Part shown: positions 4,726-52,250 of the stretch, piece by piece | Layout: each line of letters begins with the position of its first letter | Position numbering within the stretch: the stretch's first letter is position 1 | Source: Vicinamibacterales bacterium | Lineage (GTDB): Bacteria; Acidobacteriota; Vicinamibacteria; Vicinamibacterales; UBA8438 | Length of the DNA: 64,000 nucleotides | NCBI GenBank assembly: GCA_963662965.1 | Contig: OY759970.1 | Location: forward strand, 3,328,524-3,392,523 | Direction: 5' to 3' | Notes under the pieces: generated by a model | Told to the model about the DNA's origin: nothing | The model's database searches: none | What the model saw: the letters and a program-made list of their open reading frames with translations, nothing else | Made by a program: the position numbers and the translations under genes

Positions 4726-4889
4726 TGGCCTGTAACAGCTGAATCAGTAACACTCCGCGGGCGTGGGGCATCCCGCCTGCCTGCGTTACTCCTCGGTCAC
4801 AAATGCCAGACTTTCTCCCTCGTCGCGCCTTGCCAGCTGGGTGCCGCGCGCCGCGGAGTGGTACTGATTCAGCTGTTACAGGCCACTAG
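4722..4889 (-). repeat. family A palindromic interspersed element, copy A1
   Basis: Arms 4722-4760 and 4851-4889 are complementary at 38 of 39 positions. Interior blocks are shared with A2-A6. Confidence 0.9.
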
Positions 4890-4893
4890 TGTC

Positions 4894-5317
4894 CTAGCCT
4901 CGAGCCACCGCTAACGGCGCCGTCGTCAGGTCGACACCAAGGTCGGACGCCAGGCGCTGGGCGAGGTCCATTTCGTCATCCGAGTCGTTCCAGCGAAACA
5001 GGATGTAGCGCCAGTTGATGAAACGGCACGTCGCGTCCAGACCGCTGTTTCTCGTCGGCCATGGCCCGCAGATTCACGAATGCGGCCTCGAGGTCGCCCC
5101 GCTGGCGGTACTTCCCGTAGTGCTTCGGTATCGCACCGTCGAGCGAGAACGTGACTTCGTCGATGCCGGTGTGCACCAACTGCCGTGCGCGCTCCTCACC
5201 GAAGGCGAGGCCGTTCGTGCTGGTGTAGAGATAGATGTGCGGGAAGCGAGACTTGATGTACTCGCACATCGACGAATTTGTATGAGACGTTGAATACGCG
5301 GCGCCGGTCCGCTGCAC
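4894..5317 (-). pseudogene. radical SAM enzyme fragment (no CxxxCxxC core, one frameshift, truncated C-terminus)
   Basis: The ORF reads ...YLYTSTNGLAFGEERARQLVHTGIDEVTFSLDGA...YRQRGDLEAAFVNL.... The continuation FINWRYILFRWNDSDDEMDLAQRLASDLGVD lies in another frame after the T-run near 5021-5023. No N-terminal cluster-binding region is present. Confidence 0.55.
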
Positions 5318-5446
5318 GATCGCATCCCACGCCTGCTGGTCGCCGCACAGGCATGCTTCGATGAGCGCGTCGGTCGAGTCAGGGGAGGGGACGAGCGGAT
5401 CTACGGCCTCGAAGGATTGTACAATGCCGCTTCCGCGACATTATCC

Positions 5447-6688
5447 ATGGCAGGCTTCGCGTTTTCCGATATCGGTATGGCGTGCGACGGCGTCGATCTG
5501 GCGCCCGTCGTCGCGGCTGAGAGGTCTCCGCTCTACGTCTACAGCGCGGCGCTCATCGAGGAGCGCTACCGCGCGCTGGATGCCGCGTTCGGCCACTATC
5601 CGCACCGCGTGCACTATGCGCTCAAAGCCAACTCGACGCTCGCGATCGTCCGTCTGATCGGCGGCATCGGCGGGGCGGTCGACGCGAATTCCGGCGGCGA
5701 GATCGCGGTGGCCCTCCGGGCGGGGATCGACCCGCAGGACGTCGTGTTTACCGGCGTCGGAAAAACCGACGCGGAGCTCGAGCAGGCGGTCGCCCTCGGT
5801 GTCCACGCGATCAATGCCGAGTCGGCGGGGGAGTTGGCCCGCATCGATGGGATTGCGACCGCTCGGGGGCAACGCGCCCGCGTCGCGCTTCGGGTCAATC
5901 CGGACATCGACGCGATGAGTCATCCCGGGATCTCGACCGGGGGGCGCGCGCACAAGTTCGGGGTGCCGCTCGAGGAGGCCGGTGCCGTCTTCCGTGAGGC
6001 AACGAGTCGCCGCGGCCTGAATCTGGTCGGCGTCCATGCGCACGTCGGATCGCAGATCACGACGCTCGACCCCGTGCGGCGGATGGCGGCGGCCATCGCG
6101 ACGTTCGCGCAAGCGCTCGTCGCCGACGGCATTCCGCTTGACTATCTCGATCTTGGTGGCGGGCTCGGCATTTCGTATGACGGGGGACCGTCGCTACCGG
6201 TCGGGGACTACGCACGGACGATCGTCGACGCCGTCGCGCCGACCGGATTGAAGTTACTGGTCGAGCCGGGGCGTTGGATCGTGGGGCCGGCGGGCGCGCT
6301 GCTCGCGACCGTGGTGGATGTCAAGCCGCAGTTGTCGGGCCGCTATTTTGTAGTGCTCGACGCCGGGATGACGGAGTTGATGCGGCCTGCGTTGTACGAC
6401 GCCGTTCACCGAATCGACCCGCTGGTCCCGCGGCACGGTGCGGACGTCACCTGCGACATCGTCGGACCGATCTGCGAGACCACGGACGTGATTCGACTCG
6501 GCCATGCGCTGCCGCTTCCCGAGGTGGGCGACGTCCTCATCGTGCGCGACACCGGCGCGTACGGGTCGGCGATGGCGTCGAACTACAACCGGCATCCGCT
6601 TCCGGCCGAGGTGCTGATCGAGAACGGCCAGTCACGGCTCATTCGCCGGCGGCAGAACGTCGACGATCTGCTGGCGTGCGAGGAGTGA
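5447..6688 (+). CDS. lysA: diaminopimelate decarboxylase
   Basis: Motifs SPLYVYS, ALKANS, HVGSQI, GGGLGI, EPGR, CE..D. The start is uncertain; I prefer ATG 5447 to 5417. Confidence 0.92.
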   Translation: MAGFAFSDIGMACDGVDLAPVVAAERSPLYVYSAALIEERYRALDAAFGHYPHRVHYALKANSTLAIVRLIGGIGGAVDANSGGEIAVALRAGIDPQDVVFTGVGKTDAELEQAVALGVHAINAESAGELARIDGIATARGQRARVALRVNPDIDAMSHPGISTGGRAHKFGVPLEEAGAVFREATSRRGLNLVGVHAHVGSQITTLDPVRRMAAAIATFAQALVADGIPLDYLDLGGGLGISYDGGPSLPVGDYARTIVDAVAPTGLKLLVEPGRWIVGPAGALLATVVDVKPQLSGRYFVVLDAGMTELMRPALYDAVHRIDPLVPRHGADVTCDIVGPICETTDVIRLGHALPLPEVGDVLIVRDTGAYGSAMASNYNRHPLPAEVLIENGQSRLIRRRQNVDDLLACEE

Positions 6689-6700
6689 TCGAGGACAGAC

Positions 6701-7297
6701 ATGTTGGTGGCCATCGAAGGATTGGACCAGAGCGGGAAGGAAACCCAGGCGCAGCGGTTGCGCGACCACGTCAGAGCGGAAGGACACAAGTCCCGCGTCG
6801 TTTCGTTCCCCGACTACGGAACCTCAATCGGCGAAGAGATCGCCCGTGCGCTCCAGGGCGAGCGAGAGTATGGACCGGAGGCGATGCAGCTCCTCTACGT
6901 CGCGAACCGGTTCGAGCGCAAGGCTGACATCGACCGGTGGCACGACGCCGGCCTCGTGGTGCTGTTCGACCGCTACGTCGCGTCGAGCATCGCCTACGGC
7001 GAGGCGCAAGGGCTCGACCCGGCGTGGCTGACGACGCTTCAGGTGTATCTACCCCAACCGGACCTCACGCTCCTGCTCGACATCGCGCCCGAGACCGCCG
7101 TGAGCCGCAAGACGACCGGGCGCGACCGGTATGAGCAAGATCTGACGATGCTCCAGCGTGTCCGAGCAAGCTACCTCCGCCAAGCCGAACATCCCCAATG
7201 GATGCGCGTCGACGGAGAGCAGCCGAAGGATTCGGTCGCGGCCGCGCTCGCGACAGCCATCGCGCCGCACCTAGCGGCGGGCAGGAGCCCGCGGTGA
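6701..7297 (+). CDS. tmk: thymidylate (dTMP) kinase
   Basis: IEGLDQSGKETQ P-loop, DRY motif, about 198 aa. The last 4 codons plus the stop lie in repeat A3. Confidence 0.88.
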   Translation: MLVAIEGLDQSGKETQAQRLRDHVRAEGHKSRVVSFPDYGTSIGEEIARALQGEREYGPEAMQLLYVANRFERKADIDRWHDAGLVVLFDRYVASSIAYGEAQGLDPAWLTTLQVYLPQPDLTLLLDIAPETAVSRKTTGRDRYEQDLTMLQRVRASYLRQAEHPQWMRVDGEQPKDSVAAALATAIAPHLAAGRSPR

Positions 7298-7457
7298 AAG
7301 TCGCGCTGCATTCGACCGACGATGCATCCGGCAAGGGCCCTTGTTGGTCTTCCATGTAGCGGGGTCGCATACTGTCGGTATTCTCCCTCGTCCCGCCTTG
7401 CCAGGCCGGGCGCCTCGCCGGTCTCGGTGCCACGCGCGACTTTCACCGCGGGCTCCT
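7283..7457 (-). repeat. family A element, copy A3
   Basis: Perfect 24-nt arms (7283-7306 / 7434-7457). Core CGGTATTCTCCCTCGTCCCGCCTTGCC. Confidence 0.9.
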
Positions 7458-8201
7458 AAGATGAGCTGACGGGCCGGTGGCCGGCGCCACGCTGAGGGCC
7501 CGCACGCTTCTCGCCCCCGCGTCGACCAGCACGGACGCACACGCCTCGACGGTCGCTCCGGTCGTCACGACGTCGTCTACCAAGAGGATGCGACGTCCGC
7601 GAATGGCCGCGGCGGTGCGGCGTCCGCCGCGCCATTCCCTGAGCCTGAACGCGCCGCCGACGGCGCGCAGACGGTCGCCGCGCGCCAGTACTGCCTGTGG
7701 GCGCGTGTGTCGCGTGCGGCGGAGCGCGTTGACGACCGGCGAGTCGAGACCGGCCGCCAAGTCGGCCGCTTGATTGAACCCGCGTCGCCAGCGCCGCAGC
7801 GGATGCAGCGGCACCGGCACGATGAGGTCGGTGTCCGAGAGCCAAACCTGGCCCGCGGTGCGCATCAGCTGCGTGAGTGGGACCGCGAGCGTTCGCCGGC
7901 CACCGTACTTGAGCGCATGCACGATCGCGCGCAAGGTTTCGTCATGTAGACTGACCGTTCGGCGCGGGGTTGTGAGTCCGGCGGAGCGGGTGCAGGACAC
8001 GCAGTATGCGGGCGGGGCTGCCGCGGCCCACAACGGGATGGCGATGCCGTAGAGATCGCAGACCGGTGGTTCGATTCGTGCGACCCGCTGCCAACAGTCG
8101 ACGCACATCCTACCGCGAGAGGGCGCAACCAGTAGTTCCTCGCAGACCGCGCACCGTGGTGCCCACGCCACCGCCAGCAGGGCGTCGACGACGTGTCGCA
8201 C
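7443..8201 (-). CDS. comF: ComF family phosphoribosyltransferase-like protein
   Basis: N-terminal CxxC...CxxC, and a C-terminal PRTase motif ILLVDDVVTTGATV. I chose GTG 8201, because upstream of it the long ORF overlaps rsfS. The last codons lie in repeat A3. Confidence 0.8.
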   Translation of the reverse strand: MRHVVDALLAVAWAPRCAVCEELLVAPSRGRMCVDCWQRVARIEPPVCDLYGIAIPLWAAAAPPAYCVSCTRSAGLTTPRRTVSLHDETLRAIVHALKYGGRRTLAVPLTQLMRTAGQVWLSDTDLIVPVPLHPLRRWRRGFNQAADLAAGLDSPVVNALRRTRHTRPQAVLARGDRLRAVGGAFRLREWRGGRRTAAAIRGRRILLVDDVVTTGATVEACASVLVDAGARSVRALSVAPATGPSAHLRSPR

Positions 8202-8232
8202 GATACTCGTGGTTGCCGACGCGTTGGGTGGA

Positions 8233-8640
8233 TCAGGATGGCTGCAAACCGGGTGGATCGCTCGGGCGGAGAGGAGAGATTTCGAGACGGGTCGCGCTTC
8301 CCCAGAGGCGCTCGAGGTCGTACTGGCGTCTCGCCTCCCGGGTGAAGACATGCACGATGACATCGAAGCAGTCCATGAGCACCCACTCCGCGTGGTCGTA
8401 CCCTTCGACGTGCGTGGGGCGCGTACCGTCCGCTTTGAGACGGGCGTCGATCGCATCGGTGATCGCCTTGACCTGTCGCGTGCTCTGACCCGAGGCGACG
8501 ACAAAGAAGTCGGTGAATGCGCCGGAGCCGCGTAGATCGAGGACCATGACGTTAAACGCCTTCTTGTCCTCCATCGCGCCGATCACGGTGCGCACCGCCG
8601 TCGGCACGTCGAGCGCCGCGGTCTCGGCAGGCTTACTCAT
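8233..8640 (-). CDS. rsfS: ribosome silencing factor RsfS (iojap)
   Basis: 135 aa. DFFVVASGQSTRQVKAI and WVLMDCFDVIVHVF motifs. ATGA overlap with the nadD stop. Confidence 0.9.
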   Translation of the reverse strand: MSKPAETAALDVPTAVRTVIGAMEDKKAFNVMVLDLRGSGAFTDFFVVASGQSTRQVKAITDAIDARLKADGTRPTHVEGYDHAEWVLMDCFDVIVHVFTREARRQYDLERLWGSATRLEISPLRPSDPPGLQPS

Positions 8641-9335
8641 GCAAACGGCTCACCACCAGACCTGCAGGCATAGAATCGATGGCTGGCGATATACGCTACG
8701 ACCGCTGGGGGGAGCAGGCCATCGATCGAGTCACCCCGCGCCACGCGCTCCCGAATGTCAGACGATGAGACATCGCGGGTGTCCGCGTCCACGAGCCAAA
8801 TAGCTGTCCGGTCTGCGGTTCCGAAGGTTACTGGACCGCGGCCACCGCCGGTCGTTGCCGTCCGCATGCGATCCGCCAGCGTCGGGAGCCGCTGGGGGAG
8901 TTGTGTGGCGGCGAGCCCTGGGCGAGAGACGACGACAAAGTGGCTCCGGTCAAGCAGCCTCGGGTAGTCGTGCCACTGCGCGATTTCTGCGAAGGCGTCG
9001 CCGCCGATGATGAAAAACAACTGCGCGGGGTTGTAGCCGGTCAGGGCGAGCTTCTGTAGCGTCAACGAGGTGTACGACGGCTCCGACGATGACGAGCGGA
9101 GCTCGATATCGCTCACACTGAGGCTCGCGTGGTCGGCCGTCGCGAGCTCCAGCATCGCGAACCGGTGATACCCCGACACCGGTTGCGCCGGTGCCTTGTG
9201 CGGCGGGACTCGGGACGGCACGAAGAGCACCTCGGGCAGCGAGACGGCGCGCTGCGCCGCTAGTGCGGCATCGAGATGGCCGAGATGGACTGGATCGAAG
9301 GTGCCGCCGAGGATGCCGATTCGTGACGCCACCAT
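8637..9335 (-). CDS. nadD: nicotinate-nucleotide adenylyltransferase
   Basis: GILGGTFDPVHLGHL (HxGH) motif and an SSSDIR C-terminal motif. ATG 9335 overlaps the obg stop by 1 nt. Confidence 0.9.
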   Translation of the reverse strand: MVASRIGILGGTFDPVHLGHLDAALAAQRAVSLPEVLFVPSRVPPHKAPAQPVSGYHRFAMLELATADHASLSVSDIELRSSSSEPSYTSLTLQKLALTGYNPAQLFFIIGGDAFAEIAQWHDYPRLLDRSHFVVVSRPGLAATQLPQRLPTLADRMRTATTGGGRGPVTFGTADRTAIWLVDADTRDVSSSDIRERVARGDSIDGLLPPAVVAYIASHRFYACRSGGEPFA

Positions 9336-12090: not shown

Positions 12091-12466
12091 AGATTTCCCT
12101 GAAGAGGTCGTAGTTCTGTTGAATATTAATGTCGTTCGGGGCGAGGTCGAGCGCCTCTTCGTAGGCCTCGAGCGCCTCGTCGAACATCCCCTTCTGCTCG
12201 TACGCGATGCCGAGGTTGTTCCAGGCCGCAGGATACGACGGATCGATTTCCGTGGCGCGCTTCCAGCGATAGGTCGCCTCATCCCAGAGCTCGCGCTGCG
12301 CCACTTTCATTCCGAATTCGACCTGCGCTCGCGCGTCGTCACGCACATCAGCCGAAAGGGTGGGCGCGGAAGCGCCAACGAGGGTGATGGCAAGAACAGT
12401 CAGAATGGTCGCAGCCCGTAGTGAAAGCCCCACTGCATTCGACCGGCGCTGCATTCCGTCTGCCAT
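12062..12466 (-). CDS. small secreted TPR-repeat protein
   Basis: Signal-peptide-like LRAATILTVLAITLVGASA, then TPR motifs (AWNNLGIAYEQKGMFDEALEAYEEAL). Candidate starts are 12466, 12454 and GTG 12433, all of them inside repeat A4. Confidence 0.65.
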   Translation of the reverse strand: MADGMQRRSNAVGLSLRAATILTVLAITLVGASAPTLSADVRDDARAQVEFGMKVAQRELWDEATYRWKRATEIDPSYPAAWNNLGIAYEQKGMFDEALEAYEEALDLAPNDINIQQNYDLFREIYDRLSENDR

Positions 12467-12583
12467 CGTTGCTCCTCGGTCAAATACTGCCGGTATTCTC
12501 CCTCGTCACGCCTCGTCCTGGCCGGCCGCTACCTTATTCAACTGGGGTCTCGATGCAACGCGGGGTTTCACCACGGGCTGCGA
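12409..12583 (-). repeat. family A element, copy A4
   Basis: Imperfect 34-nt arms homologous to those of A3. Core CGGTATTCTCCCTCGTCACGCC. Confidence 0.85.
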
Positions 12584-14029: not shown

Positions 14030-16441
14030 ATGGCGAAAACGCTGGTCATCGTGGAATCGCCGGCAAAGGCTAAGACGATCAACAAGTACCTGGGCCTGGA
14101 CTTCAAGGTCGTCGCGTCGATGGGCCACATCCGCGACCTCCCCAAGAGCAAGCTCGGGGTTGAGGTGGAAAACGGGTTCGCCCCGGTTTACGAATCGATC
14201 CCCGCCCGGAAGAAGGTCATCAAACAGCTAAAGGACGCCGCGAAGAGTGTGAGCCAGGTCTATGTCGCGACCGACCCCGACCGCGAAGGCGAGGCGATTG
14301 GCTGGCACCTGGCGCGTGAGCTCGGCACGAAGAAGCGCAAGGTCGGGCGCTTGATGTTCAACGAGATCACGAAGTCGGCCGTCTTGGCGGCGCTCGACAA
14401 GGTGGGTGAGATCGACCAGAAGATGGTCGACGCGCAGCAGGCCCGCCGCGTGCTCGACCGATTGGTCGGCTACAAGCTGAGCCCGCTCCTGTGGGACAAG
14501 GTGCGTCGCGGGCTGAGCGCCGGCCGTGTCCAATCGGTGGCGCTCAAGCTGGTGTGTGAGCGCGAGGCGGATATCGAGGCGTTCAAAGCGGAGGAATACT
14601 GGCACATCGTCGCCCGTCTGGCCGGCGGCTCTCCACCGGAGTTCGAGGCGAAGCTCGCCAAGAAGGGCACGAGCGCCATCAAGATCGGCAACGAGGCCGA
14701 AGCGAACGCAGCCCTCGCCGATCTCGACCAGGCCGCCTTCGTGGTCAAGTCGGTCGCCACCAAGGAGCGGAAGAAATCGGCCGCACCCCCGTTCATCACC
14801 AGCAAGCTACAGCAGGCGTCGCGGTTCCCGGTGAAGCGGACCATGATCGTCGCCCAGCAGCTGTACGAGGGGATCGAGCTTCCGGGCGAGGGGTCGGTCG
14901 GCCTGATCACCTACATGCGAACCGATTCGACCCGGGTCTCCGAACAGGCGATCGGCGACATGCGGGACTTCATCGGCGCGACGTATGGTCCTGACTTCGT
15001 ACCGACGAAGCCGAATCGCTACCGGGCTAAGAAGGGTGCGCAGGACGCGCACGAGGCGATCCGGCCGACGTCGACCGCCTACGATCCGGAGACGGTGCGG
15101 CCGCATCTGACGAAGGAGCAGTACTACCTCTACCGGCTGATCTGGAGCCGCTTCGTGGCCTCGCAGATGCCGCCCGCGACGTTCGACGACACCACCGTCG
15201 ATGTCGGCGCGGGAGACTACACGCTGCGGGCCAAGGGGTCGGTGCCGAAGTTCAGCGGCTGGATGAAAGTCTACGAGAAGGACACGGCCGAAGACGCGGC
15301 GAACACCGAGACCACGACCGATGCCGAGGCGGACCTGGACGCAGTCACCGGCCAGCTGCCGATGGTCGCGGAGGGCGACGCGCTCGCGCTCAAGAAGCTG
15401 ACGCCGGAGCAGAAGTTCACCCAGCCGCCGCCCCGGTTCAGCGAAGCGACGTTGGTCAAGGAGCTCGAAGAGAACGGGATCGGACGCCCGAGCACCTACG
15501 CGTCGATCATCGGGACGCTGCAGGCCCGCGAATACGTCGAGAAGCTCGAGGGGCGGTTCAAGCCGACCCGGCTGGGACGGCTCGTGACCGACCTCCTGGT
15601 CAAGAGCTTCGACGACATCATTCAGGTCGACTACACGCGTGAGATGGAGGACAACCTCGACAAAATCGAGGAGGGGGCCGCCGACTACGTCGGGACGCTG
15701 TCGAACTTCTACAAGAAGTTCAGCTCCGAGCTCGACAAGGCATCCAAGAAGATGCCGAACATCAAGGTGAACGGCCTGCCGAGCGACGAGACCTGCGACA
15801 AATGCGGGTCGAAGATGATCATCAAGGTCGGCAAGTTCGGGATGTTCCTCGCCTGCAGCGCATACCCGGACTGTCAGAACACCCGCGAGCTCGAGAAGAC
15901 CGAAGAGTCGGCCGACGAGCAGGAGGAGACCTGCGAGAACTGCGGAAAGCCGATGGTGGTCAAGCGTGGTCGATTCGGACAGTTCCTCGCCTGTACCGGG
16001 TACCCGGACTGCAAGACGACCCGCAAACTCATTTCGACGTCATCGGGCCTGGCCGCAGCGAAGCCAGACCAGCCGCTCGATGAGAAGTGTCCGAAGTGCG
16101 ACTCCCACTTGGTGATCAAACATGGACGTTTCGGGGAATTCACCGCGTGCAGCGACTACCCGAAGTGTCGGCATGTCAAGCTCAAGAGCATGGGCGTCGC
16201 GTGTCCGCGAGACGGCGGAGACATCGTGGAGCGCAAGTCGAGACGCGGTCGGGTGTTCTATGGCTGCAGCAACTATCCTGATTGCGATTTCACCGTCTGG
16301 AACAAGCCGCTCGATGAGGTGTGCCCGCAATGCAAGGCGCCGTTCCTCGTCGAGAAGGTGACCAAGCGCTGGGGCCGCCAGGTGTTGTGTCACAAGGACG
16401 ATTGCGACTACGCCCGCAACGAAGAGCTGGCGGCGGTCTAA
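14030..16441 (+). CDS. topA: DNA topoisomerase I
   Basis: 803 aa. TOPRIM N-terminus (LVIVESPAKAKTI), active-site region ITYMRTDS, and four C-terminal CxxC...CxxC zinc ribbons. Confidence 0.97.
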   Translation: MAKTLVIVESPAKAKTINKYLGLDFKVVASMGHIRDLPKSKLGVEVENGFAPVYESIPARKKVIKQLKDAAKSVSQVYVATDPDREGEAIGWHLARELGTKKRKVGRLMFNEITKSAVLAALDKVGEIDQKMVDAQQARRVLDRLVGYKLSPLLWDKVRRGLSAGRVQSVALKLVCEREADIEAFKAEEYWHIVARLAGGSPPEFEAKLAKKGTSAIKIGNEAEANAALADLDQAAFVVKSVATKERKKSAAPPFITSKLQQASRFPVKRTMIVAQQLYEGIELPGEGSVGLITYMRTDSTRVSEQAIGDMRDFIGATYGPDFVPTKPNRYRAKKGAQDAHEAIRPTSTAYDPETVRPHLTKEQYYLYRLIWSRFVASQMPPATFDDTTVDVGAGDYTLRAKGSVPKFSGWMKVYEKDTAEDAANTETTTDAEADLDAVTGQLPMVAEGDALALKKLTPEQKFTQPPPRFSEATLVKELEENGIGRPSTYASIIGTLQAREYVEKLEGRFKPTRLGRLVTDLLVKSFDDIIQVDYTREMEDNLDKIEEGAADYVGTLSNFYKKFSSELDKASKKMPNIKVNGLPSDETCDKCGSKMIIKVGKFGMFLACSAYPDCQNTRELEKTEESADEQEETCENCGKPMVVKRGRFGQFLACTGYPDCKTTRKLISTSSGLAAAKPDQPLDEKCPKCDSHLVIKHGRFGEFTACSDYPKCRHVKLKSMGVACPRDGGDIVERKSRRGRVFYGCSNYPDCDFTVWNKPLDEVCPQCKAPFLVEKVTKRWGRQVLCHKDDCDYARNEELAAV

Positions 16442-16444
16442 ACG

Positions 16445-16716
16445 TCAGACGGGGCGTGCGGCGACCAAGCTTAGACTGGGGGAATATCGCGCTCGGCCGA
16501 ACGGTCGAGCCTCGCGCGCTTTCCCCAGACCCCCTCGCTCGCTCACTCGTGGGGACCCCGAATGCCCCACTCCGTTCGCTAGCGTATGGTGTGGGACAGC
16601 CGAGTCATTCGAAGTACGATCAGGGCGCGCACGGCGCGCCCCCGCCGGCACGGAGTGGGGCGAAAGGGTCCCCGCGAGTGCTGGCCGGTGGGGTCGGGGC
16701 CGTAGGCCCCGTCTAG
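16445..16716 (+). repeat. family B element B1 (X hairpin + full Y module)
   Basis: X hairpin 16476-16528. Internal arms 16544-16575 / 16650-16680. GGGCGCGC-ACG-GCGCGCCC at 16623-16641. Terminal GGGGCC-GTA-GGCCCC at 16696-16710. Confidence 0.9.
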
Positions 16717-16719
16717 ATT

Positions 16720-18129: not shown

Positions 18130-18306
18130 CGGAGTCGCGGGCGCTTCCCCCGGACCCCCCTCGCTCGCTTGCGTATGTTGGGCGTAGCCGGCTTGTTCGA
18201 AGTACGAGCGGGGCGCGCAGGGCGCGCCCCAGCCGGCACGGAGTGGGGCAAATGGGGTCCCCACGAGTGCCGGCGGCGGGGTTCGGGGCCGCAGGCCCCG
18301 TCTAAG
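18094..18306 (+). repeat. family B element B2 (X + Y, with a 37-nt internal deletion relative to B1)
   Basis: Collinear with B1 except for loss of the left internal arm. The terminal hairpin is present. Confidence 0.9.
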
Positions 18307-18318
18307 TAAGACGGACTC

Positions 18319-31382: not shown

Positions 31383-31572
31383 CTAGTGGCCTGTCCAAGC
31401 CAAAGCGACAGCGCTCCGCGGGCGGGGCATCCCGCAAGGGCTGGCGTTATGACCTCGCCTGGTGGGGTCACAAATGCCCAATTTGCTCCCTCGTCGCACC
31501 TTGCGGGGGCCGGGCGCGTCTGTCGATCAGCGACCACGGACTGCTGTCGATTTGGTTCGGACAGGCCACTGG
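31383..31572 (-). repeat. family A element, copy A2
   Basis: Same termini and interior blocks as A1. Over the 31-nt arms there are 26 Watson-Crick pairs plus 3 G-T pairs. Confidence 0.9.
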
Positions 31573-37494: not shown

Positions 37495-37556
37495 GGCGCG
37501 CACGGCGGCGCCCCCGCGAGTGCCGGCGACGAGGTTCGGGGCGGTAAGCCCCGTCT
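37494..37556 (+). repeat. family B truncated Y module (B4)
   Basis: GGGCGCGCACGGCGGCGCCC...CGCGAGTGCCGGCG...GGGGCGGTAAGCCCCGTCT. Confidence 0.75.
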
Positions 37557-37561
37557 GGGTA

Positions 37562-38095
37562 ATGATGCGGATCGAGATCGAGGTCGACGGGACGATGCAC
37601 GACGTCACAATCGATGCGATGACCAGCGCGCCGGGGCGCTTCCTCGTCTCCTGGGGCGGGACGACGCATGAAGTCGATGCACGCGTGGTCGAGCGCGATC
37701 GGCACGGGATGCTGCTGTCGCTCGTTCGGATGGGCGGCGATGCTACGAGTCGACAAGTCCGTTGCAGCGCGGTCGAGCGCGGGACGATGACGGTGAGGGC
37801 CGCCGGGGTCGATCACCGCGTCGTGATCAACGGGAGTCGTAGGCGGGTCGACCTCCCAGAGGCCGGCGATGGGGGCGGAGGTGTGTCCCGGTTGAAGGCG
37901 CCGATGCCAGGCAAGGTGGTCCGTGTCCTGGTCGCGCCGGGGGACGATGTCGACGCACGACAGCTGCTGGTCGTGGTCGAAGCGATGAAGATGGAGAACG
38001 AGCTGACCGCGGCACGTGCCGGTACCGTGACCGAGGTGCCGGTCAGCGAGGGGGACTCGGTCGAGTCGGGCCGGCTCCTCGTGGTGATCGAGTAG
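37562..38095 (+). CDS. biotin carboxyl carrier (biotinyl/lipoyl domain) protein
   Basis: C-terminal APMPGKVV...EAMKMENE biotinylation motif. ATG 37562 is the first ATG after repeat B4. Confidence 0.8.
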   Translation: MMRIEIEVDGTMHDVTIDAMTSAPGRFLVSWGGTTHEVDARVVERDRHGMLLSLVRMGGDATSRQVRCSAVERGTMTVRAAGVDHRVVINGSRRRVDLPEAGDGGGGVSRLKAPMPGKVVRVLVAPGDDVDARQLLVVVEAMKMENELTAARAGTVTEVPVSEGDSVESGRLLVVIE

Positions 38096-42357: not shown

Positions 42358-45320
42358 TGTTGCTCCCTCGTCACGCCGTGCACGGGCCCGGCGCGATCTG
42401 TGCCTGTCTCGTCCTCTGGGCGGGCCCGGCGGCGGCCGGGGCGGAGGTCGACGAATTCATCGGCCAGCGTGTGGTCGAGGTCGAGTTCGCCACAGATGGG
42501 ATCCCGATTAACGACCCCGCCGTTCGCGAGCTGGTGGAAACGACCGCCGGCGAGCCGCTCGCGATGCGCGAGGTCCGTGAGAGCTTGGCGCATCTCTTCA
42601 GCCTCGGTCGCTACGGCCACGTTGCGGTCGACGCCTACCCACGCGCCGGCGGTGTGGCGCTGCTGTATGAGCTGAGGCCGTTCGAGCTCGTCGAGCGCAT
42701 CGAGCTCTCCGGTAATCGGGTGCTCGCCGCCGACGACGTGCGGCGCGTCGTCGTCCAGCGCCACGGCGAGGTCTTCCCCGCCAGCGCGGCCGCCGCGGTG
42801 GCCGATACCGTGCGCGCGTACTACGCGGAGCGCGGTTTTCTGTCACCGCGGGTCGACGCGGAGCTGCGCGGGTCGGCGACCGAGCGCACCCTTCGCTTGA
42901 CGATAGTTGCTGGCGCGCGCGCCCGCGTCAATCGGTGGTTCATCACCGGCGTCGCCTCGGCGTTGCTCAACACGCGGCTGCGAGCTCGTCTGGGCCTCGT
43001 CGACGGCGACGTCTACGACGGCGCGAGGCTCGATCAGCGGTTGAGCGAGTACGAGGGCGAGCTCCGCGCGCTGCAGTACTACGAAGCGCGTCTCTCGCAC
43101 ACGGTGGAGCGACGCACAGACGCGGACATCGACGTCCGTTTGAACATCCTGCGCGGACCGCGCATCACGGTGACGCTGAGCGGCGACGAGGTGCCGGACG
43201 CGCGGCTCGGCGATCTGGTGCCGGTCGGACGCGAGGCGAGCGTCGACGAGGACTTGCTTGAGGATGCCGACCGACGGATCGCGGCGCACTTGCGGTCGCT
43301 CGGCTACCGCGACGCGGACGTGACGCACACGGCCGACGGGACCGCGGACGAGCTGTCGATCGTCTTCGCGGTGACCCGCGGCCCGTTCTATCAGGTGGTT
43401 GCCGTGCGGATTCGAGGCAACGCGAGCGTGCCGACCGAGGTGCTCCTGCCGGTGGTCAACATCACGTCTGGCGATCCGCTCATTGTCTCCGACGTGGACG
43501 CCGGGTTGGCCGCCATCGAGGAGCGCTACCAGCAGCTCGGCTATGCGACCGTGCGCGCGACCAGAACCTTCGCCGACATCGCGACCGGTGGCGCTGCGGG
43601 TACCGTGATGCAGACCGTCGATATCGACATCGTCGAAGGGCCGCGGATGACCATTGCCGCCTTGGTGTTCGACGGGGTCGAGGCGTGGCCGTTTGACAGA
43701 CTCGAGGAGACGGTCGCCGCACGTATCGGCGAGCCTTTCTACGGACCGCAGGTGAGCGACGACCGCGATGCGCTGCTGTCGCTCTATCTCAACGACGGGT
43801 ACGAGCAGGCCGTGGTGGTCGTCGAGCCGCAGTTTGCGGACGACCTGCGCACCGTCGACCTGGTCTTCCGCGTCGACGAAGGGCGTCAGGTACTCGTCGA
43901 TCACGTGTTGATCGTCGGTAACCGTCGGGTCGACTCCGAGACGATTCGTGGCGAGCTCGCCCTCGCGCCCGGCGACCCGCTTGGTCTCGACGACGTCGCG
44001 GAGACCCGTCGCCGGCTCAACGCGCTGGGGATGTTTCGTGGACTCGATATCCGGGAGTTTAGCCATGGTTCTGTCGACCGACGCGATGTCATCATCGAAG
44101 TGGAGGAGGCGCCGGCGACGACGCTGGCGTACGGCGGCGGGCTCGAAGTGTCGCAGCGGATTCGGCGTGACTCGGGCGACGAGGGAAGCGCCGCGGTGGA
44201 GCGGATCGAGTTTGCGCCGCGCGGATCGTTCCAGATCGGGCGCCGCAACCTGTGGGGCAAGAACCGGTCGATCAACTTGTTTACCCGTGTGAGTGTCCGG
44301 CGTAAGAACGATCCATCCGAGCCGGGTTCGGCTGACGCGGCCCGAACGCTTGGGTTTAACGAGTACCGGGTGTTGGGGACCTATCGCGAGCCGCGGTCGT
44401 TCCGGCTGCGCTGGGATGTGCTGATGTCGGGTTACGTGGAGCAGGCGATTCGACCCGGGTTCGATCTGTTCACCCGCGGTGTCACGGCACAGGTGGTGGC
44501 GGGATCCGGTGATAGGACGAGCACGACGCTCGGCTACCGCCTGGGGAGCAACGACACGTCGAATCGACAGCTGGACCCCGAGGACAGCAATATCGTCGAC
44601 CGACTGTTTCCGGAGGTGCGACTGTCGTCATTCCGGCTGAGCCGGCTTCGGGACACCCGCAACGATCCGTTCGATCCGACACGCGGCACGGTCCTCACCG
44701 CCGAAACCGAGCTCGCCGCTCGCTCGATCGGGTCCGCGGTCGGGTTTACCAAGACATTTCTGTCCGGTTCGTTCTTCCGCGAGCTGCGCGACGCGTCTCG
44801 TCTCGTGTTTGCCGCCAGTGCACGTGTCGGTCTGGCGTGGGGTTTTCCGCAGACGTATCATCTCGAGGGCCCCGGCGGACCGATGGAGGTGTCGCAGACG
44901 CTCGACCTGCCGATCAGCGAGCGCTTTTTTGCCGGAGGGGATAACACCGTGCGTGGATTCGCCCTCGACCGCCTGGGCGATCCGCGTGAGGAACCGGGCG
45001 GCACCATCGATCAGGACGGCTTTCCGCAGGGCGGTAACGCCATGCTCATCTTTAATACCGAGCTACGTGTGCGGCTGACGCGCGCCGTCGGACTCGTGAC
45101 GTTTCTCGACGCCGGGAACGTTTATGATGATGTGCAGCACGTGAGCCTGCGTCGTATCCGCGGCGGCGCTGGCTTCGGGGTACGGTACAGTTCGCCAGTC
45201 GGACCGATTCGCGTCGACCTCGGCTTCAAGCTCGGTGAGCGGCACTTCTTTGGTGACGAGACGAGTCGGACGCAAGAACCGCTCACCGCGCTTCACATCA
45301 GCATCGGCCAAGCGTTTTAG
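42357..45320 (+). CDS. Omp85-family outer membrane protein assembly factor (BamA/TamA-like)
   Basis: Signal peptide, several POTRA-like units, C-terminal barrel with RGF/GGD-type motifs (FFAGGDNTVRGF) and a terminal ...ISIGQAF. ATG 42357 overlaps the tamB TGA. Confidence 0.85.
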   Translation: MLLPRHAVHGPGAICACLVLWAGPAAAGAEVDEFIGQRVVEVEFATDGIPINDPAVRELVETTAGEPLAMREVRESLAHLFSLGRYGHVAVDAYPRAGGVALLYELRPFELVERIELSGNRVLAADDVRRVVVQRHGEVFPASAAAAVADTVRAYYAERGFLSPRVDAELRGSATERTLRLTIVAGARARVNRWFITGVASALLNTRLRARLGLVDGDVYDGARLDQRLSEYEGELRALQYYEARLSHTVERRTDADIDVRLNILRGPRITVTLSGDEVPDARLGDLVPVGREASVDEDLLEDADRRIAAHLRSLGYRDADVTHTADGTADELSIVFAVTRGPFYQVVAVRIRGNASVPTEVLLPVVNITSGDPLIVSDVDAGLAAIEERYQQLGYATVRATRTFADIATGGAAGTVMQTVDIDIVEGPRMTIAALVFDGVEAWPFDRLEETVAARIGEPFYGPQVSDDRDALLSLYLNDGYEQAVVVVEPQFADDLRTVDLVFRVDEGRQVLVDHVLIVGNRRVDSETIRGELALAPGDPLGLDDVAETRRRLNALGMFRGLDIREFSHGSVDRRDVIIEVEEAPATTLAYGGGLEVSQRIRRDSGDEGSAAVERIEFAPRGSFQIGRRNLWGKNRSINLFTRVSVRRKNDPSEPGSADAARTLGFNEYRVLGTYREPRSFRLRWDVLMSGYVEQAIRPGFDLFTRGVTAQVVAGSGDRTSTTLGYRLGSNDTSNRQLDPEDSNIVDRLFPEVRLSSFRLSRLRDTRNDPFDPTRGTVLTAETELAARSIGSAVGFTKTFLSGSFFRELRDASRLVFAASARVGLAWGFPQTYHLEGPGGPMEVSQTLDLPISERFFAGGDNTVRGFALDRLGDPREEPGGTIDQDGFPQGGNAMLIFNTELRVRLTRAVGLVTFLDAGNVYDDVQHVSLRRIRGGAGFGVRYSSPVGPIRVDLGFKLGERHFFGDETSRTQEPLTALHISIGQAF
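42358..42405 (-). repeat. family A core fragment (A6) embedded at the tamB/Omp85 junction
   Basis: TTGCTCCCTCGTCACGCCGTGCACGGGCCCGGCGCG matches the A2 core TTGCTCCCTCGTCGCACCTTGCGGGGGCCGGGCGCG at 29 of 36 positions. Confidence 0.6.
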
Positions 45321-45960
45321 TGCGCTGCTGTCGGCCCTCCTGTGGGCGGCACCGCTCGGAGCCGTTGCCCAGAGCCTCGACCGCATCGTGGCCGTCGTCG
45401 CCGGCCACGTCATCTTGGCCTCCGACGTGAGGGCCTTCCTCGAGTTCGGCCTCATCGAGGTCGAGGCTTCTGGCTCTGTCTCTGACTCTGAAGAAGACGA
45501 GCGCACGCGCGCCGGATGCGCCCTGACGCGGCTGATCGAGCGACGTCTCGCGCTCGACGAGGTCGACCGATATCGGGTGGCCGCGCCGCGGCCAGAACAG
45601 ATCGATCGCGAGCTCGCTGCCCTCCGCGGTCGCTTCAGCGATGAGGAGGCGTTTGCGGATCTCCTGGCGGCGGTGGGGCTCGGACTGCCGGACCTCAGGC
45701 AGATTCTGCGGGACAATGTCCGGCTGGAGGCGTATCTCGCTGGACGCTTTGGTTCGGCGGATCGGCTGAGTGAGTCGGAGCTGCGCGCCTACTACGCCGC
45801 CAACCGTGACGACTTCACCGACGCGGGGCGCGGCGTCGCGTTCGACACGGTTCGTGCGCAGGTCCAAGCCCGGCTGTGGGCGGAGCGGCGCGCGGCCCTC
45901 GTCGAGAACTGGACTGCCGGTCTCGCTCTCCGCGGGGACGTGACCCGGTTTGAGCCATGA
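45235..45960 (+). CDS. periplasmic SurA N-terminal-domain-like chaperone
   Basis: Signal-like LSALLWAAPLGAVAQS, then DRIVAVVAGHVILASDV and helical repeats. The start is uncertain (GTG 45235, TTG 45250 or GTG 45253) and all candidates overlap the Omp85 3' end. The stop lies at the edge of repeat B3. Confidence 0.55.
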   Translation: MSGTSLVTRRVGRKNRSPRFTSASAKRFSALLSALLWAAPLGAVAQSLDRIVAVVAGHVILASDVRAFLEFGLIEVEASGSVSDSEEDERTRAGCALTRLIERRLALDEVDRYRVAAPRPEQIDRELAALRGRFSDEEAFADLLAAVGLGLPDLRQILRDNVRLEAYLAGRFGSADRLSESELRAYYAANRDDFTDAGRGVAFDTVRAQVQARLWAERRAALVENWTAGLALRGDVTRFEP

Positions 45961-46113
45961 TCAGACCGGGGGAATATCGCGCTCGATCGAGCAACGGAGT
46001 CTCGCGCGCTTCCTGGTCAGACGGGGCCTGCGGCTCCGAACCCCGCCGCCGACACTCGCGGGGGGCCCCTTTGCCACGCTCCGTGCCGGCGGGGGCGCGC
46101 CGTGCCCGCCCTG
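45959..46113 (+). repeat. family B element B3 (X module followed by an inverted Y module)
   Basis: The X module is collinear with B1/B2. 46017-46110 is the reverse complement of the B1/B2 Y module. Confidence 0.88.
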
Positions 46114-46261
46114 ATCTCAGACTCCCCCATCCGGGCTCAGCGAGAGCGATTGTTTCCCGGCCTGCGTGGGTGCCGGTCGGACATATCCCGAAAGAAACCG
46201 TCTGCCTTTAGCGAGACGAAGCACCCCTGTATCTGAGGGCGGCTGGATGTTTCCCGAGGCG

Positions 46262-46278
46262 AGTCGGCCCCGTCTAGG
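46262..46278 (-). repeat. family B terminal motif fragment (B6)
   Basis: The minus strand reads CCTAGACGGGGCCGACT, the same CTAGACGGGGCC terminus as the Y ends. Confidence 0.5.
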
Positions 46279-47065
46279 TAATCACCTCCGCGGCGGTGAC
46301 CGCCAGGATGATCTCGACCAGATTGAAGCCCGCGTGGCTCACCATCGATGCGACGATGCTCCGTCGCACGAGGTAGAGCGCCCCCCACGCAGCCCCAAGC
46401 GCGCCGGTCATGACGGCGGCGTCCCACCCCTGGACGTGGTGCCCGAGGCCGAACGCGACGCTGAAGATCACGAGGCCAAGCCAGCCCCCGCCAAGATGTT
46501 GCTCGAAGCGACGCAGGATAAACGCGCGCTGCAGTTCCTCCCGTACCCCACCGGCGATCACGACCACCAGGCCGAACAGCAGTGCCCGCGCCGGGGTGTC
46601 GAGCATCGACTCCAGCGGATTGTCTGGGACATTCTGAAGCGACGGCGCAATGGTGCGAATCAACAGCAGTCCGCCGATCGCGATGAACACGAGTAAGGGA
46701 ATCAGCAGGACGCCCAGCGCCGCTTCTCGGCCCGGAGTCCAAGCGCCGGCGACGAGGTCCCGCAGCGACTCGCCGTGTGCGCGCAGGAAATAGACAACGA
46801 GTGCCACAATGAAGGCGGCGTCGACGAGCGAGAGGGTGACGATGTAGGCGAACGACAGCTGACCGTCGCTGGCGACCGCCTGCATCCCGATGCTGTTCAG
46901 TATCAGCGCCAAGGCGAGCTGCGTCGGGAACCCGGAGCAGATGAGCACCTCGGTCAAGGCTGTGGTCGCTCCACCGGGGCCGGCGTCGGTCGTGGGGACG
47001 GTGATGGCGTCTGGGGCGGAACCGAGCGACTCGCCGGGCGGGGAGGTCGAGTCCGGCTCCGTCAT
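46274..47065 (-). CDS. CPBP family intramembrane glutamic endopeptidase (CAAX/Abi)
   Basis: Motifs GVREELQRAF, FSVAFGLGH, HAGFN. Multiple TM spans. Confidence 0.8.
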   Translation of the reverse strand: MTEPDSTSPPGESLGSAPDAITVPTTDAGPGGATTALTEVLICSGFPTQLALALILNSIGMQAVASDGQLSFAYIVTLSLVDAAFIVALVVYFLRAHGESLRDLVAGAWTPGREAALGVLLIPLLVFIAIGGLLLIRTIAPSLQNVPDNPLESMLDTPARALLFGLVVVIAGGVREELQRAFILRRFEQHLGGGWLGLVIFSVAFGLGHHVQGWDAAVMTGALGAAWGALYLVRRSIVASMVSHAGFNLVEIILAVTAAEVIT

Positions 47066-47127: not shown

Positions 47128-47143
47128 TTGACCTGAAATCACT

Positions 47144-47159: not shown

Positions 47160-47165
47160 TTTCTC

Positions 47166-50160: not shown

Positions 50161-50171
50161 TCCTTATTCTC

Positions 50172-50192
50172 GACGGGGCTGGCGGCCCCGTC
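50172..50192. repeat. family B terminal-hairpin-like unit (B5)
   Basis: GACGGGGC-TGGCG-GCCCCGTC immediately after the nrdJ stop, followed by TGAG as at other Y ends. Confidence 0.55.
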
Positions 50193-50209
50193 TGAGATTG
50201 GACCGGCGT

Positions 50210-50230
50210 GGGGCGTTCGGGGCCCCTTTT
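50210..50230 (+). terminator. intrinsic terminator candidate after nrdJ
   Basis: GGGGC-GTTCGGG-GCCCC followed by TTTT. Confidence 0.55.
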
Positions 50231-50306
50231 GCAGTACGCTGGCAGTCTCAGTGTTCCTCGTCGTGAATGGACGGCGCCGGAACCCGAGCGATGAGGGGGC
50301 CGTACG

Positions 50307-52109
50307 ATGTCCACGCATTCTCGCGCTTCACGATATGTGCTGGTGATCGCGATTGCCGTCACCACGTTCACATCAGCGCAGGTAACCATTTCCGCGCAGT
50401 CCTCCGGCGCGTTTGTTCCCGTCACCGACGCGATGCTCCAGGAGCCGGCCCCCGGTGACTGGTTGATGTGGCGCCGCACGCTGGACAGCTGGGGCTACAG
50501 TCCACTGGACGAGATCGACCGAGACAACGTCGGTGCCTTGCGCATGGTCTGGTCGCGCGCGCTCACGGACGGGTTCCAGTCGGGCACACCGCTGGCCTAC
50601 GGCGGCGTGATGTACATGCCGAACCCGAACGATGTCATTCAGGCGATCGATGCGGCGACCGGCGATCTCATCTGGGAGCACCGCCGTCAGGTTCCCGACG
50701 ACGTCAACGAGTACTTGGGCGGTGAACTCTCGACGAACAATCGAAATATCGCGATCTACGACGACCTCATTATCGACACGAGCGTCGACGACCATGTCTT
50801 TGCCCTCTCGGCCGAGACGGGTCAGATGGAGTGGGAGACGCAAGTCCTAGACTACAAAGTCAATCCGGCCACCCAGGGCTCCGGTCCGATCATCGCCGAC
50901 GGCAAGGTGATCACGGGACGCAGTTGCTCGGCCAAGGGAGGACCGGAAGCGTGCGTCGTGACCGCGCATGACGCGACGACCGGGGCCGAGTTATGGCGGC
51001 GGCGTCTGATTCCAGGACCAGGTGAGCCGGGCGACGAAAGCTGGGGCGACGTCCCGTTCGAGGAACGAGTTCACGTCGGCGCGTGGATGGTGCCGAGCTA
51101 TGACCCGGTCCTCAATCTCGTCTACGTCGGAACCTCCGTCACCGCCCCGGCCCCGAAGTTCATGCTCGGAGGTGTGAACAACAAGCATCTCTATCACAAC
51201 TCCACGCTCGCGCTCGACGCCAACACCGGGGACATCGTGTGGTACTACCAGCATCTCAATGATCATTGGGACCTCGATCATCCGTTCGAGCGATTGCTGG
51301 TCGATACCGTGGTGGCGCCCGATCCGTCGGCGGTGAGCTGGATCAATCCGCGGTTGCGGACCGGGGAGACGCGGCGGGTCGTCACCGGTATTCCGGGAAA
51401 AACCGGGGTGGTGTATACCCTCGACCGTGCGACGGGGGAGTTCTTGTGGGCAACGCCGACCGTCACCCAGAACGTCATCAGCGACATCGACGGGGCAACC
51501 GGAGCAGTGTCGGAAAACTCGGAAGTGGTCTTCAGCGCATTGGGGCAGGAGGTCTTTGCCTGCCCGACCTGGAACGGCGGGAAGGACTGGGAGGCGGGCG
51601 CCTACAGCCCCCTGACCAATACGATGTACATGCCACTGCGGAACACCTGCGCTCGGATGATGGCCGCCACGGAGTTCGAAGACCGACCGAACGAGCCCAA
51701 CGAGAGTCGCGCGGCGACCTACGCGATTGCCTACCGCCACCAGCTGGCTCCTGGCACCGACAATGCCGGCACCGTGCGGGCGATTTCGGTAGAAACCGGC
51801 GAGACGGCCTGGCTCTATGAGCAGCGAACCGCGACCATGTCACTCGTGGCGACCGGGGGTGGACTTATCTTTGGTGGTGACGTCAATGGGCGATTTCGGG
51901 CGCTGGACCACGAGACGGGAGAGATACTGTGGGAAATCAACCTCGGGTCGTCGGTCACTGGGTTCCCCATCACGTACGCGGTCGATGGTCGGCAGTATGT
52001 GGCGGTAAGTACTGGCTCTGGGGGGACGTCGGCGCACTTTATCGGTTTGACGCCTGAGATTCGCCCTAGCTCGGGGAACAACCTCTTCGTGTTCGCCTTG
52101 CCAGATTAG
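50307..52109 (+). CDS. PQQ-dependent dehydrogenase (quinoprotein, 8-bladed propeller)
   Basis: Signal peptide. Repeated A(L/I)DxxTG(E/D)xxW blades: AIDAATGDLIWEH, ALSAETGQMEWET, AHDATTGAELWRR, ALDANTGDIVWYY, ALDHETGEILWEI. Confidence 0.85.
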   Translation: MSTHSRASRYVLVIAIAVTTFTSAQVTISAQSSGAFVPVTDAMLQEPAPGDWLMWRRTLDSWGYSPLDEIDRDNVGALRMVWSRALTDGFQSGTPLAYGGVMYMPNPNDVIQAIDAATGDLIWEHRRQVPDDVNEYLGGELSTNNRNIAIYDDLIIDTSVDDHVFALSAETGQMEWETQVLDYKVNPATQGSGPIIADGKVITGRSCSAKGGPEACVVTAHDATTGAELWRRRLIPGPGEPGDESWGDVPFEERVHVGAWMVPSYDPVLNLVYVGTSVTAPAPKFMLGGVNNKHLYHNSTLALDANTGDIVWYYQHLNDHWDLDHPFERLLVDTVVAPDPSAVSWINPRLRTGETRRVVTGIPGKTGVVYTLDRATGEFLWATPTVTQNVISDIDGATGAVSENSEVVFSALGQEVFACPTWNGGKDWEAGAYSPLTNTMYMPLRNTCARMMAATEFEDRPNEPNESRAATYAIAYRHQLAPGTDNAGTVRAISVETGETAWLYEQRTATMSLVATGGGLIFGGDVNGRFRALDHETGEILWEINLGSSVTGFPITYAVDGRQYVAVSTGSGGTSAHFIGLTPEIRPSSGNNLFVFALPD

Positions 52110-52124
52110 CAGCCATCTCATAAA

Positions 52125-52250
52125 GGCGCCGGCATTCGGCCGCCGATGCATCCCGCCAGGGGCGGCGTTGGGCGTTGCATGAGCGCGGTCGAATACTACC
52201 GGTATTCTCCCTCAGTCTTTGGCCGGGAGCGATATTCCCCTGGTCTGATC
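52125..52250 (-). repeat. family A element A5, fused to a family B X-module end
   Basis: Core CGGTATTCTCCCTCAGTCT, followed by the reverse complement of GATCAGACCAGGGGAATATCG at 52230-52250. Confidence 0.8.

Follow-up and report, generated by a model that had tools for sequence, protein, structure and literature searches.

A G-rich motif confined to two families of short mosaic repeats in a Vicinamibacterales-like soil acidobacterium

Background

MITEs (miniature inverted-repeat transposable elements) of the IS630 type and the Correia elements of Neisseria are 100-300 bp in length. The RIME repeats of Rhizobium and the ERIC/IRU repeats of enterobacteria are imperfect palindromes of 100-200 nt that are found only in intergenic regions and are patchily distributed among related species; we know of no transposase for either of them. 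Further small repeats are the repetitive extragenic palindromes (REPs) with the bacterial interspersed mosaic elements (BIMEs), and the GTAG- and CGTC-tagged palindromes of Di Nocera et al. 2013 (PMC3733652). Here we analyse a 64,000-nucleotide stretch of contig OY759970.1 (assembly GCA_963662965.1), referred to below as the window, which covers housekeeping genes of an uncultured, Vicinamibacterales-like soil acidobacterium. It contains two families of short repeats, A and B, and a preliminary description of the window had reported that a G-rich motif of about 17 nt is common to both and looks like either a recognition site for a protein or a conserved RNA loop.

Both families resemble the IS630/Tc1-mariner-type MITEs and the Correia elements in that they are small, contain no open reading frame (ORF), have inverted ends, form long hairpins and lie at or inside transcription units. 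As in the IS630 type, CTAG is found at the ends of copies A1 and A7, the latter of which has a duplicated TA or TAG when compared to empty sites. However, they have no sequence relation to these elements, no cognate insertion sequence (IS) was found, and the single IS630-family copy encountered has other ends. Unlike IS630-type MITEs, family A combines a constant core with wholly different arms, and a TA duplication is not established by the flanks of family B (2 of 5). With the REPs and BIMEs the elements share GC-rich hairpin modules, mosaics in both orientations, a short tag beside the hairpin, a location mostly downstream of genes and between unidirectional or convergent ORFs, and lineage specificity (PMC3733652), but the tag is AGAC here, the hairpins of ~50 nt belong to elements of 150-275 nt, no RAYT was seen, and one TA/TAG duplication is present. 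The elements do not correspond to REPs as defined by an imperfect palindrome of 20-40 nt with an unpaired GTAG or CGTC tag. They are also unrelated in sequence to RIME and ERIC, compared to which they have, in addition, recognisable CTAG/TA ends and a modular build of head and tail.

We consider it fairly probable that A and B are non-autonomous, non-coding mosaic insertions of the MITE or REP/BIME kind, spread in one Vicinamibacterales-like lineage, and that the motif of family B is a putative transposase recognition end.

Results and Discussion

The motif is real, non-random and confined to the repeats. The sequence AGACYRGGGGAATATCR was found exactly at the four sites reported for it, starting at 16473, 18098 and 45963 on the plus strand and at 52230 on the minus strand, compared to 0.02 matches expected from dinucleotide-preserving shuffles. 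AGACTGAGGGAGAATACCG was found at 52200-52218 (minus strand), GACGAGGGAGAATACCG at 7376-7392 and 12491-12507 (minus strand), and the degenerate forms were recovered as well, GACGAGGGAGAAAG in A1 and GACGAGGGAGCAA at 31484-31495 and 42361-42372. The two motif copies described in A5 stand in tandem with a spacing of 30 nt. Seven distinct sites have the core GGG(G/AG/GG)AATA[CT]C; each of them lies within a repeat, and there is none in unrelated coding sequence. The original observation is nevertheless only partly confirmed: the single unified consensus of 19 nt has its only exact match at 52200-52218 (minus strand) in A5, and allowing 3 mismatches adds one site, 7376-7394. The look-alikes mentioned near 12662 and 25190 carry no weight, since the loose form GAC-N0-3-GGGRG is not enriched (35 observed, 34.5 expected).

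Family B elements are about 220-275 nt long and have terminal inverted repeats (TIRs) of the form CCAAkmTyAGAC(0-2 nt)GGGG. The left ends read gCCAwGnTyA-GAC-yrGGGGAAT and the right ends, reverse-complemented, read (T/C)AATCTyA-GAC-GGGGCC; the two agree at 9-10 of 12 positions and in the run of four Gs, and are TIRs. The alignment of seven heads contains the invariant block CC..G...AGAC...GGGAAT.T, in which conservation starts 8 nt upstream of AGAC. The conserved block of family B thus begins 8 nt further 5' (CCAWGNTY) than the motif as first delimited. Within the element, the motif comprises the inner half of the left TIR (AGAC-YR-GGGG) and the 5' arm of the subterminal hairpin in the "head", and the partner of the left TIR at the tail end reads ...GGCCCCGTCTAAGATT. 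The head hairpin consists of GGGGGAA-UAU-CGCGC, a loop of ~20 nt and GCGCG-C-UUCCCCC, with an asymmetric UAU/C internal loop. GGGAA/UUCCC is constant in six heads, and two inner pairs show compensatory changes among these six (GC/CG 3:3, CG/UA 5:1). The motif itself varies in newly found copies (AGACTGTGGGAATCTCG, AGACTTGGGGAATCTTG), and the modules are shuffled, with lone heads, lone tails, inverted tails and a solo hairpin.

Because the motif is half of a TIR that has its partner at the opposite end of the element, it may be the site of a transposase, and a protein recognition site is the most likely reading of the motif in family B. The earlier interpretation is to this extent partly supported: a protein site agrees with the position of the motif in the best-conserved block of the B head, but not as one site across both families. 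A transposase acting in trans would bind the left end and its partner at the tail end, thereby moving the element, and the lone or inverted heads, tails and hairpins would arise by partial insertion, recombination and decay.

Comparison with other genomes bears on the insertion of the elements. Four syntenic relatives were reached via LysA homologues (LysA identity of 83% for locus L107, 74% for L109 and L111, and 64% for L129); the other fetched loci, which also have L-numbers, include the strain loci L004, L006, L130, L132, L133 and L138. BLAST and profile searches found no A or B element at the orthologous sites of the four relatives, where the gene order is the same. The window has elements of 150-280 nt where the syntenic relatives have spacers of 3-30 nt. 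The spacing between topA and trmFO is 3-30 nt in the relatives and 278 nt in the window, nearly all of it B1, whereas trmFO and xerC overlap in the relatives (L107) and are 189 nt apart in the window, nearly all of it B2. Downstream of the DHDPS and M48 peptidase genes, the flanks are conserved and a repeat replaces unrelated sequence directly past the stop codon. Judged by this comparison, both families are lineage-specific insertions. A full B element is also present at a non-syntenic site (5467-5700) of locus L052, from the Vicinamibacterales metagenome-assembled genome OZ250139.1, which is the nearest named relative with a common repeat among the matches listed. This element is 72-77% identical, and its first 26 nt are the same as those of B1, although L052 and L129, the relative with the most distant LysA, belong to one genome. 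Such a patchy distribution together with high identity of the elements indicates mobile-DNA behaviour. The genomes of L129 and L138 were both assembled from soil sample ERZ25766727, as a contig of 4.65 Mb (L052 species) and a circular contig of 5.69 Mb (window species), and the co-occurrence of these two family-B-bearing genomes fits horizontal spread of the element.

A target site can be read for A7. At the end of an HNH gene, the empty sites in three relatives have the sequence ..ACN TAG G.., and the filled site in L138 reads ACC-TAG-[AAGCC...GGCTTC-TAG]-GAGCTC-GTG, which amounts to a duplication of TA or TAG at the HNH stop codon. IS630-family elements target TA, which they duplicate upon insertion, and IS630 favours TA within CTAG (PMC2170065). 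As far as its sequence goes, the A7 duplication is the signature of an IS630/Tc1-mariner-type insertion. A1 and A7 are flanked by CTAG on both sides, which in A1 agrees with a TA duplication, and A4 by CCAG and CTAG. With respect to the features that define MITEs, the elements are short (150-275 nt), non-coding and multicopy, inverted repeats are present at the ends of A1, A4 and A7 (arms) and of family B, and insertions are polymorphic between related genomes, though fixed between strains that are ~98.8% identical.

The A7 duplication, which fits DDE cut-and-paste and not HUH chemistry, also speaks against a different mode of movement, by which the elements would be REP/BIME repeats moved by a RAYT or TIRYT (HUH Y1 transposase) acting on a single-stranded hairpin and a tag, either AGAC (GTCT) or GACG (CGTC). 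Such a mode would account for the conserved and mostly unpaired AGA(C) on the 5' side of the head hairpin and again on its 3' side, for the REP-like size of the terminal unit GACGGGGC-N5-GCCCCGTC, and for the BIME-like mosaics of hairpin modules in alternating orientation. Moreover, Acidobacteria encode a distinct RAYT-like group, the TIRYTs, some of which have inverted-repeat families of their own (PMC3733652). However, no Y1 transposase (Y1_Tnp) was found in the window or in the gene table of any fetched locus, the tag is not GTAG, nor is there an unpaired CGTC, as GACG and CGTC pair with each other in the solo hairpin, and the units exceed the 20-40 nt of REPs, the head hairpin alone being about 50 nt. 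We therefore regard movement by a RAYT or TIRYT as improbable. The search for a RAYT partner, proposed in the preliminary description, yielded neither a RAYT nor any other transposase gene within the window.

Several observations also weigh against the interpretation of A and B as transposase-mobilised insertions. The fetched loci, which represent about 2% of the genome, contained neither an autonomous element nor a transposase with matching ends, and the copies of the IS5, IS6, IS3, IS256 and IS630 families in the strain loci all have unrelated ends. Target duplication is seen in one A copy only (A7), the flanks of the full B copies are TA...TA in two of five cases, and strains that are ~98.8% identical show no difference in the presence of A or B and thus give no sign of current mobility. 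Ordinary MITE families keep their ends while the interior drifts, whereas family A shows the reverse, with a constant core and three unrelated types of arms. In about 8 of 10 cases, a B head or tail has the orientation of the gene upstream of it, which could reflect a role at the RNA level. Finally, the census is small: about 80 kb yielded 7 copies of family A and, for family B, 7 heads and 8 tails.

Family A elements are about 150-190 nt long, and each copy folds as one long hairpin. Their conserved core is GGCAAGGCGnGACGAGGGAG-AATACCGGCAGTATT-GACC ... GG(G/A)ATGC, with the invariant columns GAGGGAG.A, and the block GACGAGGGAG-AATACC adjoins the apical hairpin (AAUAC-N5-GUAUU) on its 5' side. 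The outer arms are of three types without mutual similarity, CTAGTGGCCTGT... in A1 and A4 (type 1), GCCCGYGGTGAAA... in A2 and A3 (type 2) and CTAGAAGCCATCTCATAAATGCG in A5 and A7 (type 3); types 1 and 3 terminate in CTAG. Pairing in the apical hairpin is kept by double changes between subtypes (UA/AU and CG/UA), which amount to one or two events at most. The block of A7 reads GAAGAAGGAGAATACCGG, so that the G run is not fixed in family A.

That the motif is common to both families, as initially proposed, is not supported by alignments against shuffled sequences or by reciprocal profile searches, with the exception of a fragment of a B head in A5. Every A copy (A5 without its head) was aligned with every B copy on both strands and compared to dinucleotide-shuffled A copies; the local alignments between A and B were no better than the shuffled ones, with p values from 0.05 to 0.97, mostly >0.2. 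At E <= 1 in 1.3 Mb, the B-head profile detected all heads and the head fragment of A5 (E = 2e-6) but no A core, and the A-core profile detected all A copies but no B head. The pairing roles differ as well: GGGGAA is paired and UAU looped out in B, whereas in A it is AAUAC that is paired, and at most two Gs of the run pair with the downstream GACC. One could still imagine a single DNA-binding protein acting in trans that recognises GAC-N2-3-GGGrG-AATAyC in both families, as the block is the best-conserved stretch in each of them, is followed in both by a hairpin and then GACC, and is found in both versions side by side in A5, and as the two 17-mers, when aligned alone, match at 13-14 positions with one gap. 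Against this stand the whole-element alignments at chance level, the lack of cross-detection by the profiles, the different pairing of the aligned positions, the absence of enrichment of the generic pattern, the new copies that break the joint consensus (AGACTGTGGGAATCTCG, AGACTTGGGGAATCTTG, GAAGAAGGAGAATACCG) and the post hoc nature of a comparison of two families only, and we hold such a shared site to be very unlikely. With only two families and a block chosen post hoc, the likeness is indistinguishable from coincidence and is best regarded as such, apart from A5, the single real chimera.

The suggestion of a conserved RNA loop is not supported. In family B, the G run and the following AA form a paired stem arm, and a search of Rfam 15 gave only a tRNA above the gathering score and, at E <= 10, no match on any element. 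The sense strand and the antisense strand fold equally well, their energies differing by -12 to +8 kcal/mol with no consistent sign, and this lack of strand bias fits DNA palindromes. More generally, the elements could work mainly as RNA, as hairpins at 3' ends and in operons that serve as terminators, 3' stabilisers or processing sites, in which case the Shine-Dalgarno (SD)-like block (GAGGGAG, GAAGGAG, GGGGGAA) would serve as a binding site for ribosomes or for an RNA-binding protein. Most copies indeed lie within 0-25 nt of a stop codon in the orientation of the upstream gene, B1 and B2 must be co-transcribed inside the topA-trmFO-xerC string, the stems have compensatory changes and some G-U pairs, A3 provides an SD sequence and an ATG in a 5' leader, and the A7 variant GAAGAAGGAG retains the GGAG core. 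However, in addition to the lack of an Rfam match even at E = 10 and to the antisense strand folding as well as the sense strand, a terminator scan found no intrinsic-terminator-like sites at the elements, tails are found in either orientation with respect to heads and to genes, the 39-bp arms with one mismatch look DNA-like, and the absence of the elements at orthologous sites in relatives implies that no conserved regulatory role is tied to the flanking genes. Between the ~98.8% identical strains, changes in the A1 arms are uncompensated, one making a mismatch and another repairing one. An RNA function as the principal one thus appears rather unlikely, but the elements may have an RNA-level side effect or secondary role. 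A promoter reading (sigma-70, sigma-54 or ECF) was rejected, as the two hexamers do not stand together at a constant distance in any copy, and no defining feature of a DNA uptake sequence, integron attC, retron, group II intron remnant or omega-RNA was found.

Most copies begin 0-25 nt from a stop codon: the TGA of the upstream gene lies inside B3, tails start at the junction TAG|GGCGCGC, and B6 starts 2 nt past a TAG. Permissive TA targets may be mostly the stop codons themselves, as coding sequence of 65% G+C has few TA dinucleotides and genes are only 3-30 nt apart; TA and CTAG would thus be concentrated at the stop codons, and copies would land there. The leading G of the element would then rebuild TAG after insertion. 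It is hardly probable, in our opinion, that A and B are undescribed stop-codon-seeking mini-transposons, which would insert at the TA of TAG or TAA, rebuild the stop with their own first base and bring structured RNA into operons, with the SD-like block acting on the translation of flanking genes. If this were true, the occurrence of the core on three unrelated arm types would mean that the core, and not the ends, is selected.

The copies of family B differ in their completeness. B1 (16444-16716, plus strand) is a full element that fills the topA-trmFO spacer. An incomplete tail end in inverted orientation (16444-16463) is followed by the left TIR CCAAGCTTAGAC (16465-16476), the motif (16473-16489) and the head hairpin, which extends as far as about 16532; after a middle palindrome comes the tail, which ends in GGCCCCGTCTAG. 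The whole insert is closed by TCAGACGGGGC / GCCCCGTCTAGA. B2 (18090-18309, plus strand; motif 18098-18114) is a full element between trmFO and xerC, the head of which is entered by the trmFO frame for 13 codons (stop codon at 18127-18129). In B3 (45955-46116, plus strand), the head with its motif (45963-45979) is followed by an inverted tail module (46019-46116), and the TGA stop codon of the upstream SurA-like gene sits within CCATGATC. B5 is a full element on the minus strand of L130 (1-217), which also contains a head alone (4392-4445) and a tail alone (6077-6177); another lone tail, inverted, is present in L132 (2035-2113). In the window, a tail only (37495-37565, plus strand) directly follows the stop codon of a biotin carboxylase gene. 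The solo terminal hairpin at 50163-50201 (plus strand), GACGGGGC-TGGCG-GCCCCGTC with TIR-like flanks, lies 3 nt after the stop codon of the ribonucleotide reductase gene and corresponds to both B ends back to back, that is, to a minimal B unit. Half of a B terminal hairpin, GGCCCCGTCTAGGTAA, at 46262-46282 (plus strand), overlaps the TAG stop codon of the minus-strand gene at 46274-47065.

All A copies in the window are on the minus strand. A1 (4722-4889, type 1) lies between the convergent lpxC and STAS genes and has arms of 39 nt with 97% identity (a single mismatch), CTAG at both ends and the core GACGAGGGAGAAAG at 4813-4824. A live IS630-family (DDE_3) copy was observed in L138 (8156-9274) with a TA duplication in the CTAG (window 4722-4725) that constitutes the lpxC stop region and the A1 end; it was rejected as a partner of A1, its ends, GTGCACCGCCGTTGATAT, being unrelated to those of A1. 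A2 (7283-7457, type 2) has arms AGGAGCCCGCGGTGAAAGTCGCGCG and its motif at 7376-7392, and is located between the convergent tmk and comF-like genes. Each of its arms carries CGGTGAAAG, which provides the TGA stop codons of tmk (7295-7297, plus strand) and of the comF-like gene (7443-7445, minus strand), so that both proteins end in element-derived codons. A3 (12410-12582, type 2; motif 12491-12507) is found in the 5' leader of the TPR-...-rplU-rpmA-obg operon, with a promoter-like site nearby (12653-12625). It contains the annotated start of the TPR gene at 12466 (GAGGAG-N5-ATG), which yields a product of 134 aa compared to 115-119 aa in three of four relatives and 144 aa in L107; the N-terminal extension probably results from an annotation error or from a start donated by the element. 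In L004 and L006, the region upstream of dprA (window 12790) is rearranged, and a cluster of IS5- and IS6-family elements replaces the A3 side.

A4 (31383-31570, type 1) follows hslU, with its core GACGAGGGAGCAA at 31484-31495; its arms of 40 nt are 83% identical and have in common with those of A1 only the outer 12 nt and the inner 8 nt. The chimera A5 (52107-52256) is composed of ~40 nt of a B head, an A core and a type-3 3' arm, the 5' arm being missing. The B head (52254-52218, motif 52230-52246) is joined to the A core (motif 52200-52218) at GAC, and the profiles score the two parts at E = 2e-6 (B head) and E = 4e-23 (A core). The gene at 52212-52580, which codes for a 122-aa product, reads through the A5 head and stops at 52212-52214. 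TrmFO and this 122-aa product enter B heads by 13-15 codons in the same frame (..DQTRGIS..), and their C-termini are thus repeat-encoded. A7, with arms of 23 nt, lies just left of the window and is intact in L138 (2899-3066) and split by an IS in L130 (7310-8915). The latter, an IS256-family (Transposase_mut) copy at 7339-8768 with an 8-bp target duplication, is absent in L138 (2919-2926). The candidate A6 (42343-42381, minus strand) was rejected as a family member: it consists only of GTGACGAGGGAGCAAC at the tamB stop codon, with 64% identity, an A-core profile E value of 0.45 and a score of 10. The GG(G/A)ATGC of the A core opens short frames at 4767, 7320, 12450, 31426 and 52147 (minus strand), for which the predicted peptide starts are MHRR(S/P)N.. 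(types 2 and 3) and MP(H/R).. (type 1), with CGT, CGC or CGG as third codon; the copies are few, with four sequences for MHRR(S/P)N.., and the stretch is also a stem.

The window has ~65% G+C and contains the housekeeping genes uvrA, lpxC, lysA, tmk, rplU-rpmA-obg, dprA and topA-trmFO-xerC, as well as hslU, acyl-CoA carboxylase subunit genes, tamB, bamA, a class II ribonucleotide reductase gene, lon, clpX, clpP, tig and a tRNA-Leu gene. The locus is also present in several long-read soil assemblies of the European Nucleotide Archive and in GCA_047515085.1. Scanning of contigs with the 17-mer of the motif gave at least 100 matches; among the matches listed, only L052 is a real relative and the others are chance matches. 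One metagenome scan had zero matches and the other 12 chance matches without extended similarity, and the two viral scans gave one chance match and none, respectively. Six-frame translations of B1, A3 and A2 had no relatives in the protein database. Locus L126, reached via an IS5 transposase, has no clear repeat copies. At 15226-15510 of this IS-rich contig, which comes from the same sample as L005, a direct duplication of ~105 nt flanks a lone fragment of a type-2 arm, CGACTTTCACCACGGGCTG.

Two further differences between strains were observed. An IS3-family insertion with a 4-bp duplication is present at window position 26454-26457 in L004 and L006, the insert of L006 being longer and containing a DDE_3 gene. 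Just downstream of rpmE (window 54718-54743), the 7-nt tandem repeat GCAGGGC (gene strand) varies in copy number between strains, with 3.7 copies in the window, ~5 in L132 (16649-16685) and ~12 in L133 (16649-16734).

Conclusions

The repeats represent a new, lineage-restricted case of a well-known kind of bacterial repeat, mildly unusual in its constant core with interchangeable arms and in its strong association with stop codons, and they add one more lineage-specific family to the MITE- and REP-like repeats of bacteria. They make up roughly 3-4% of the region, where they change gene ends and draw further IS insertions. The effects on genes comprise new C-termini of TrmFO and of another protein, new stop codons of tmk and the comF-like gene, and what is probably a spurious N-terminal extension of the TPR protein. 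Recognition of these repeats would thus improve the annotation and assembly of Vicinamibacterales genomes from soil long reads, and, if a partner transposase is found, the motif would directly give its binding site.

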